From positions 1 to 48,357 of IMG/VR virus record IMGVR_UViG_2718217867_000003: DNA of 48,357 bases. The stretch is one strand, 5' to 3'. Each line of letters begins with the position of its first letter. Positions within the stretch are counted from its first letter, which is position 1. Positions 42,972 through 45,571 of this stretch are shown here, piece by piece. Under the pieces are notes generated by a model. The model made no database searches. It was not told where the DNA came from and saw only the letters and a list, made by a program, of their open reading frames with translations. This DNA is from a virus (lineage: Duplodnaviria; Heunggongvirae; Uroviricota; Caudoviricetes). Position numbers and translations under genes: made by a program.

Positions 42972-45571
42972 ATGAGCACAAAACCACTCTTCCTGTTACG
43001 GAAAGCGAAAAAATCATCCGGTGAACCTGACGTCGTCCTGTGGGCAAGCAACGATTTTGAATCGACCTGTGCCACTCTGGACTACCTGATCGTTAAGTCA
43101 GGTAAAAAACTGAGCAGCTATTTTAAAGCTGTTGCCACGAATTTTCCTGTCGTTAATGACCTGCCCGCTGAAGGTGAGATCGATTTTACCTGGAGTGAAC
43201 GCTATCAACTCAGCAAAGACTCCATGACATGGGAACTAAAACCGGGAGCAGCACCAGACAACGCTCATTATCAAGGCAATACCAACGTCAACGGCGAAGA
43301 CATGACTGAGATTGAGGAGAATATGCTACTCCCAATTTCTGGCCAGGAACTGCCCATTCGTTGGCTTGCTCAACACGGCAGCGAAAAACCGGTAACGCAC
43401 GTTTCACGCGACGGACTCCAGGCATTACACATTGCTCGGGCTGAAGAACTACCGGCTGTTACTGCCCTGGCTGTTTCCCACAAAACCAGCCTGCTCGACC
43501 CGCTGGAAATTCGCGAACTCCACAAACTGGTTCGTGACACTGACAAAGTTTTCCCTAATCCTGGTAATTCAAACCTGGGACTGATAACTGCTTTTTCGAA
43601 GCATACCTGAACGCTGACTACACCGATCGAGGACTGCTGACAAAAGAGTGGATGAAGGGTAATCGTGTTTCACACATCACTCGCACGGCTTCCGGTGCTA
43701 ATGCTGGCGGCGGAAACCTCACCGATCGCGGCGAAGGTTTCGTACACGATCTGACGTCACTGGCGCGCGACGTAGCCACTGGCGTACTGGCCCGTTCAAT
43801 GGATCTGGACATCTATAACCTTCATCCGGCACACGCTAAACGCATTGAGGAAATTATCGCTGAAAATAAACCGCCCTTTTCTGTTTTCCGCGACAAATTC
43901 ATCACCATGCCTGGCGGGCTGGATTATTCCCGCGCCATCGTGGTTGCGTCCGTAAAAGAAGCACCAATTGGGATCGAGGTCATCCCCGCGCACGTCACTG
44001 AATATCTGAACAAAGTACTGACTGAAACCGATCATGCCAACCCTGATCCGGAAATCGTGGATATTGCCTGCGGTCGCTCCTCTGCCCCGATGCCGCAGCG
44101 AGTAACAGAAGAAGGAAAACAGGATGATGAAGAAAAACCGCAACCATCTGGAACAACGGCAGTTGAACAGGGAGAGGCTGAAACAATGGAACCGGACGCA
44201 ACTGAACATCATCAGGACACGCAGCCGCTGGATGCTCAGTCACAGGTAAATTCTGTTGATGCGAAATATCAGGAACTGCGGGCAGAACTCCATGAAGCCC
44301 GGAAAAACATTCCATCAAAAAATCCTGTCGATGCCGATAAATTGCTTGCTGCATCACGTGGTGAATTTGTTGACGGAATTAGCGACCCGAACGATCCGAA
44401 ATGGGTAAAGGGGATCCAGACTCGCGATTGTGTGTACCAGAACCAGCCAGAAACGGAAAAAACCAGCCCAGATATGAATCAACCTGAGCCAGTAGTGCAA
44501 CAGGAACCGGAAATAGCCTGCAATGCCTGCGGCCAGACTGGCGGGGATAACTGCCCTGACTGTGGTGCGGTGATGGGCGACGCAACATACCAGGAAACAT
44601 TCGATGAAGAGAGTCAGGTTGAAGCTAAGGAAAATGATCCGGAGGAAATGGAAGGCGCTGAACATCCGCACAATGAGAATGCTGGCAGCGATCCGCATCA
44701 CGATTGCAGTGATGAAACTGGCGAAGTCGCAGATCCCGTAATCGTAGAAGACATAGAGCCAGGTATTTATTACGGAATTTCGAATGAGAATTACCACGCG
44801 GGTCCCGGTATCAGTAAGTCTCAGCTCGATGACATTGCTGATACTCCGGCACTATATTTGTGGCGTAAAAATGCCCCCGTGGACACCACAAAGACAAAAA
44901 CGCTCGATTTAGGAACTGCTTTCCACTGCCGGGTACTTGAACCGGAAGAATTCAGTAACCGCTTTATCGTAGCACCTGAATTTAACCGCCGTACAAACGC
45001 CGGAAAAGAAGAAGAGAAAGCGTTTCTGATGGAATGCGCAAGCACAGGAAAAACGGTTATCACTGCGGAAGAAGGCCGGAAAATTGAACTCATGTATCAA
45101 AGCGTTATGGCTTTGCCGCTGGGGCAATGGCTTGTTGAAAGCGCCGGACACGCTGAATCATCAATTTACTGGGAAGATCCTGAAACAGGAATTTTGTGTC
45201 GGTGCCGTCCGGACAAAATTATCCCTGAATTTCACTGGATCATGGACGTGAAAACTACGGCGGATATTCAACGATTCAAAACCGCTTATTACGACTACCG
45301 CTATCACGTTCAGGATGCATTCTACAGTGACGGTTATGAAGCACAGTTTGGAGTGCAGCCAACTTTCGTTTTTCTGGTTGCCAGCACAACTATTGAATGC
45401 GGACGTTATCCGGTTGAAATTTTCATGATGGGCGAAGAAGCAAAACTGGCAGGTCAACAGGAATATCACCGCAATCTGCGAACCCTGTCTGACTGCCTGA
45501 ATACCGATGAATGGCCAGCTATTAAGACATTATCACTGCCCCGCTGGGCTAAGGAATATGCAAATGACTAA
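42972..45571 (+). pseudogene. recE: exonuclease VIII RecE, interrupted by a 1-nt deletion in a T-run
   Basis: two adjacent ORFs (42972..43610 and 43652..45571) are contiguous N- and C-terminal parts of RecE; frames join if T5 at 43592-43596 were T6; total 2600 bp versus recalled 2601-bp recE. Confidence 0.75.

Follow-up and report, generated by a model that had tools for sequence, protein, structure and literature searches.

The window analyzed here, a stretch of 48,357 bases, holds a full-length E. coli prophage, lambdoid and of the Rac type, cut between sitD and the intR end (Table I). The nearest complete genome is that of E. coli KK19-02, which aligns with 98.3% identity over positions 4822-48357. 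All mapped coding sequences outside recE and a variable island are full length, with the exception of a DUF1627 gene that carries a private nonsense codon. Alignment of strains S42 and A11 to positions 1-28300 shows no uncompensated 1-nt indel, and an earlier note on this DNA was correct in describing the large structural genes as intact. Counts of private variants are uninformative for 1-28 kb, where the nearest relatives are ~2% divergent, and the IntR protein, present in 38,011 blocks of a public index, is too common for tracing relatives. Compared with KK19-02, S42, and A11, a gene with a ParB/Srx domain has lost 3 nt of a TCC repeat at position 25325, with the reading frame kept. The 3′ end of ydaY (13932-13960, minus strand) consists of the slippery heptamer A AAA AAG immediately ahead of TAG, after which coding potential runs on in a different frame toward the tape-measure gene. 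This is expected to be the canonical −1 frameshift site of the G/GT tail chaperones, and the broken-looking frame is expected to be genuine.

Table I. Position and character of the prophage features discussed in the text (position 1 is the first base of the window)
Feature	Position	Strand	Details
Tail, head, and terminase genes	1-24 kb	−	
trkG and lysis genes	26-30 kb		
Early region	32 to 48 kb		Final genes racC, recE, recT, ralR, rcbA, xisR, intR
Non-coding A6 tract	31289..31294	+	Private 1-nt insertion; A5 in four complete genomes with the AT-rich segment; opposite direction to the deletions
Island gene	34071..36519	+	Pseudogene of an 816-aa protein (KK19-02 homolog, Pfam, base repair)
A5 tract	34925..34929	+	Private 1-nt deletion just 5′ of the Walker A motif; the 17 other copies compared all have A6
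T6 tract	35153..35158	+	T7 in intact gene; shared, almost certainly inherited frameshift; gene split 377 aa + 385 aa
Nonsense codon, CAG to TAG	37078..37080	−	Private; DUF1627 (ydaW-like) gene shortened by its last 13 codons; 16 relatives have G at 37080
recE 5′ fragment	42972..43610	+	212-aa ORF; RecE residues 1-208 and 4 out-of-frame residues, then TGA
T5 tract in recE	43592..43596	+	Private 1-nt deletion, real or artefact at even chance; T6 in all relatives (KK19-02 alignment, probes)
recE 3′ ORF	43652..45571	+	639 aa; RecE residues 228-866; whole nuclease domain
recT	45564..46373	+	Intact, 269 aa; ATG overlaps the end of recE (ATGACTAA)

In the alignment with KK19-02, the window shows uncompensated losses of a single base at exactly three places: A5 (KK19-02, A6) at 34925 and T6 (T7) at 35153, both in the island gene, and T5 (T6) at 43592, in recE. 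The earlier note had reported three 1-nt homopolymer deletions, placing one at the T run that divides recE and describing both island frameshifts as single-base losses in runs, and the alignment bears out all three positions. The recE frame is broken into ORFs of 212 aa and 639 aa. One added base at each lesion returns RecE to 866 aa and the island ORF to 816 aa, both stop-free; a single uninterrupted recE ORF of ~866 aa is found in the window only with one T added.

The annotation of KK19-02 lists the intact homolog of the island gene as an 816-aa P-loop NTPase fold protein. The island protein combines an N-terminal HSDR_N/PD-(D/E)xK-like domain (PF13588) with a KAP-family P-loop NTPase domain (PF07693), both above the Pfam cut-off; scored on the intact KK19-02 homolog, KAP_NTPase reaches 25.6 bits against a cut-off of 20. 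The Walker A motif, GTVGAGKTT, is encoded at ~34962-34988. A PADLOC search with the island protein returned weak partial matches only, the best to a DrmMI fragment (E = 1.4e-5), and no described defense system was convincingly matched. The position of the island (33400-36620, between the DUF1367/hok side and a DUF977 gene) is a variable hotspot for defense-gene cargo in Rac-type prophages. While the window carries the KAP NTPase there, A11 has AbiH and a hypothetical gene, S42 has a nucleoid-associated protein and a hypothetical gene, and other genomes compared hold IteAS, an OLD-like nuclease with a methylase, or AAA and DUF4435 genes. On sequence grounds, the island gene is a candidate single-gene phage-defense protein of the KAP family, of which the window copy is a pseudogene.

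The two island lesions differ markedly in their distribution. The exact 385-aa product 3′ of the second frameshift occurs in 375 blocks of a public protein/contig index, on long contigs from many independent NCBI assemblies that show the same 377 aa + 385 aa split. Among nine such contigs examined, eight carry T6 at 35153, seven of these eight without any other homopolymer discrepancy, whereas all nine have A6 at 34925 and an intact 866-aa recE with T6. Examples of the split form within this set are GCA_050612525.1 and GCA_000176575.2. Between 35038 and 36620, the window differs from contigs of this kind at just two positions. All seven complete-genome records that carry the island gene have it intact, with A6 and T7, and the 377 aa + 385 aa form is found in 0 of 5,426 RefSeq complete E. 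coli genomes. As T6 at 35153 is common to many independent assemblies, it points to an inherited mutation and not to an under-call, and the change from T7 to T6 is almost certainly a real, inherited pseudogene allele. The island gene is a true pseudogene whatever the status of A5.

This distribution bears directly on the proposal that all three losses are sequencing artefacts of one kind. The losses do share type and direction, and all lie in A/T runs of 6-7 bases, from which the earlier note concluded that three like events reflect homopolymer under-calling. Its description of the type of event stands, and an artefact is possible at A5 and T5, but T6 at 35153 is inherited; with this allele in independent and otherwise clean assemblies, a single origin in sequencing error for all three is hardly credible. 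The three frameshifts are of mixed origins, not of one shared origin.

No exact match to the 5′ products derived from the A5 allele (291 or 299 aa, from two alternative starts) is on record. In the 5′ kilobase of the island gene, the window has four private substitutions, three of them synonymous third-position changes. These suggest that the 5′ segment of the island gene comes from an otherwise unsampled allele lineage, in which case the word private tells little about the age of A5. The deletion at 34925 is probably real.

The recE tract is set in a far better sampled background. Apart from T5, the recE-recT segment of the window matches at least 10 complete genomes base for base, which leaves T5 as the sole change in 2.6 kb. 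A 70-nt probe found the T5 allele in 0 of 1,471 complete E. coli genomes, and a probe for T7 likewise found 0 of 1,468; all have T6. In the public index, the exact 212-aa truncated RecE product occurs in 49 blocks. Of ten T5-bearing public contigs examined, nine have lost single bases at other places too, mainly in homopolymers, with intR, ttcA, dbpA, or recT split as a result; since these contigs are mostly laden with such deletions, most of the public T5 calls are artefacts. Three T5 contigs are K-12 with 0-1 substitutions over ~11 kb, yet 4-6 one-base deletions, and because the true K-12 sequence is T6, T5 is certainly an artefact there. The allele also occurs on a recET haplotype that is ~4% divergent, which marks T5 as recurrent and of no use as a clade marker. 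A special error hotspot was considered as the source of the public T5 calls and rejected, given that in noisy assemblies ~4% of 6-mers of any kind lose a base. At that rate some tens of T5 calls, as in the 49 blocks, are expected under either hypothesis, so they do not discriminate between error and mutation for the window.

Not all tract variants come from noisy data. One T5 contig of K-12 is otherwise clean, with 0 mismatches in 16.5 kb, and a clean 126-kb contig (Logan SRR34324020) has T7 for T6 at the recE tract (positions 1637-1643), together with a recE 3′ ORF the same as that of the window. As read from the contig, the latter is a probable real +1 frameshift. The two contigs suggest that real tract variants may exist at low frequency. 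Exact-pattern scans for the T5 allele, the A5 allele, and two private SNPs gave no match in viral, GTDB-genome, and JGI-metagenome collections, and the phage collection holds no record identical to the window. A literature search for recE939 gave no matches, and the ER2796 and RecET literature contained no relevant statement. Comparison of recE with related genomes had been proposed in the earlier note as a means of deciding between artefact and mutation; it returns T6 in every complete genome probed and leaves the two evenly balanced. With equal weight on each, T5 in recE is either an error of the consensus or a deletion by slippage that happened very recently on a common recE allele.

Alternatively, A5 and T5, and perhaps also A6 at 31289 and a CCTAG at 47556, may be consensus errors left behind in an assembly made from long reads or prone to indels for another reason; recE would then be intact (866 aa) and the island gene would carry T6 only. 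This explanation is a serious one, to which a substantial, if less than even, chance is assigned. It is in keeping with the lack of any other record of A5 and the lack of T5 in any complete genome, with the repeated appearance of T5 in noisy assemblies, K-12 included, with a recE that otherwise matches complete genomes exactly, and with a bias toward deletion like that of noisy contigs. Private homopolymer length changes number three in 48 kb (A5 at 34925, T5 at 43592, and A6 at 31289), and one change at a Dcm site adds to these: intR has a private synonymous CCTAG at 47556-47560, the Dcm site CCTGG being present in 25 relatives. A similar difference, CCAGG to CTAGG, is seen in the window at 11313. 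Dcm sites are natural hotspots of deamination, and CCTAG at 47556 is compatible with a 5-methylcytosine-to-T signature, arising either from natural deamination or from nanopore methylation miscalling.

Other properties of the window argue against residual error. A census of homopolymers counted 103 runs with a true length of at least 6 bases and 28 of at least 7. With the T7 to T6 site set aside, all 27 runs of at least 7 bases agree with the relatives, and several unaltered A8 runs lie within a few hundred bases of both private deletions. In noisy public contigs of the same region, one-base losses affect 34% of the 7-mers and 67% of the 8-mers but only ~4% of the 6-mers; with these weights, the chance that three errors all land in runs of 6 bases or fewer is ~0.03. 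The pattern typical of artefacts, in which the longest runs fail most, is thus absent from the window. Candidate errors number no more than 1 per 16 kb, a far lower density than the 1 per 1-4 kb of the noisy contigs. A further lesion close by, the private nonsense mutation at 37080, is a G to A change on the plus strand in a replication-region gene and is not of the homopolymer type; the truncated DUF1627 protein, with either of two alternative starts, has no exact-protein match on record.

The location of the lesions with respect to gene function points the same way. The ~50 other intact genes hold 70% of runs of at least 5 bases, and 0 of the 3 private homopolymer changes fall there (P ~0.026 under random error), which is not the scatter with respect to gene function that error would be expected to give. 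The test is a weak one, since real mutations that arose recently in a resident prophage would be unselected as well. The earlier note had taken the intact structural genes as support for an artefact, but this reverses the argument: random errors should mostly strike intact genes, and the sparing of the structural genes therefore speaks against error. Absence from independent clean assemblies, a further mark of an erroneous allele, applies to T5 (as judged from complete genomes) and to A5, but not to T6 at 35153.

The best explanation, held at even chance, is one of mixed origin, in which two accessory genes of an otherwise intact Rac-type prophage have decayed stepwise and no single batch of under-calls is involved. 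The inherited change from T7 to T6 would have come first, splitting the KAP-type NTPase gene inside its NTPase domain in an allele carried by many E. coli assemblies. A5 would then be a second lesion in an already dead island gene, and T5 either the product of very recent slippage or an error of the consensus.

The products of the divided recE can be predicted in some detail. The 212-aa fragment contains the N-terminal Exonuc_VIII domain (PF06630, E = 3.3e-99). The ATG start of the 639-aa ORF lies 42 nt past the premature stop and is preceded by a weak Shine-Dalgarno-like sequence, AAGAG; residues 378-639 of this ORF match PDB entry 3H4R (E = 1.5e-180), and a PDDEXK-like domain (PF12684) is recognized as well. 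If T5 is real, RecE translation would end after residue 208 and four further residues, and a product comprising residues 228-866 would arise only by re-initiation 42 nt downstream at the weak ribosome-binding site. Given the overlap of recT with the recE end, ribosomes probably have to travel that far for recT to be translated, and recT would probably lose translational coupling. The earlier note had described a prophage that, if the deletion is real, has lost full-length RecE while keeping RecT and the nuclease domain; as far as the sequence can tell, this description is correct. Little or no exonuclease VIII activity is likely in that event. For the lysogen, in which the recET operon is normally silent, the loss would be neutral.

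Two known situations resemble the arrangement in the window. The first is known from E. coli K-12, in which recE frameshift mutants are suppressed by fusions of the sbcA type. In these mutants, a frameshift in the N-terminal part of recE is reported to abolish exonuclease VIII, save where a deletion has joined the C-terminal part of the gene to a start lying upstream, which makes efficient internal initiation at the 639-aa ORF doubtful. As in the window, a frameshift in the N-terminal half stops full-length exonuclease VIII and leaves the C-terminal nuclease region and recT intact. In contrast to the laboratory mutants, the window lesion lies in a natural full-length prophage, is possibly not real, and is accompanied by no suppressor fusion. 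The second is the truncated RecE used in recombineering, the C-terminal ~280 residues of which are combined with RecT. The 639-aa ORF likewise keeps the whole nuclease domain seen in 3H4R, and by analogy a RecE product lacking this terminus might in principle remain a working partner of RecT. C-terminal RecE fragments reportedly do work with RecT if artificially expressed, full-length RecE being needed for efficient linear-linear recombination. However, recombineering constructs have engineered promoters and start codons, whereas the window ORF could be expressed only through re-initiation at a weak site in a normally silent operon.

A separate rearrangement of the same region is found in a public contig (ENA ERZ27271693 k141_84715, positions 2549-2551), in which a 4.1-kb deletion fuses a ydaU-like replication gene to the interior of recE and takes out the immunity region, kilR, racC, and the 5′ end of recE. 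The arrangement resembles a deletion of the sbcA type, though it may also be a chimera of the metagenome assembly.

A functional role for the recE tract may also be envisaged. The T6 tract could be a recurrent slippage site at which natural T5 and T7 variants turn RecE into a two-piece protein (a 208-residue fragment and re-initiated residues 228-866) with altered RecET recombination specificity, the 377 aa + 385 aa KAP split being kept as a functional two-part protein; this is very improbable. Of even smaller probability is a hypermutable T5/T6/T7 switch of full-length RecE, or a rescue of the frame by −1 ribosomal slippage on C-TTT-TTC. The T5 and T7 alleles in otherwise clean contigs are what a switch would produce, but length variants number 0 in ~1,470 complete genomes, in place of the frequent variation seen at contingency loci, and known contingency loci have tracts well longer than six bases. 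A −1 slip of tRNA-Phe would, as read from the sequence, restore the native Ala-Phe-Phe-Glu, but the T5 allele has no X XXY YYZ heptamer. Rescue by transcriptional slippage was considered and rejected, since a tract of five or six bases is too short.

With respect to the two processes that can generate such lesions, the window shares with long-read or flow-based under-calling the one-base deletions in A/T runs and the identical T5 call made in noisy assemblies of recE. It differs in that the longest runs fail first in under-calling assemblies (34-67% of 7-8-mers, with errors every 1-4 kb), as opposed to 0 of 27 such runs and no more than three candidate errors in 48 kb. Pseudogene decay of accessory prophage genes, such as those for defense and recombination, gives the same picture as the window: an inherited frameshift, a second hit in a dead gene, a neighboring nonsense mutation, and intact morphogenesis genes. 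Here no distinctive difference is apparent.

Several homopolymer frameshifts of like type are insufficient for the call of an artefact. It was the allele-by-allele check against independent assemblies that set one inherited mutation apart from the two other lesions. For recE in this record, the matter is mainly one of annotation quality, and the gene should be flagged as "frameshifted; verify" and given no biological reading before such verification. Nothing new in kind is seen in this prophage, which displays ordinary prophage pseudogene decay, sequencing noise, or both. If real, the recE lesion would be a neutral loss of an ordinary kind, in a prophage operon that is silent.
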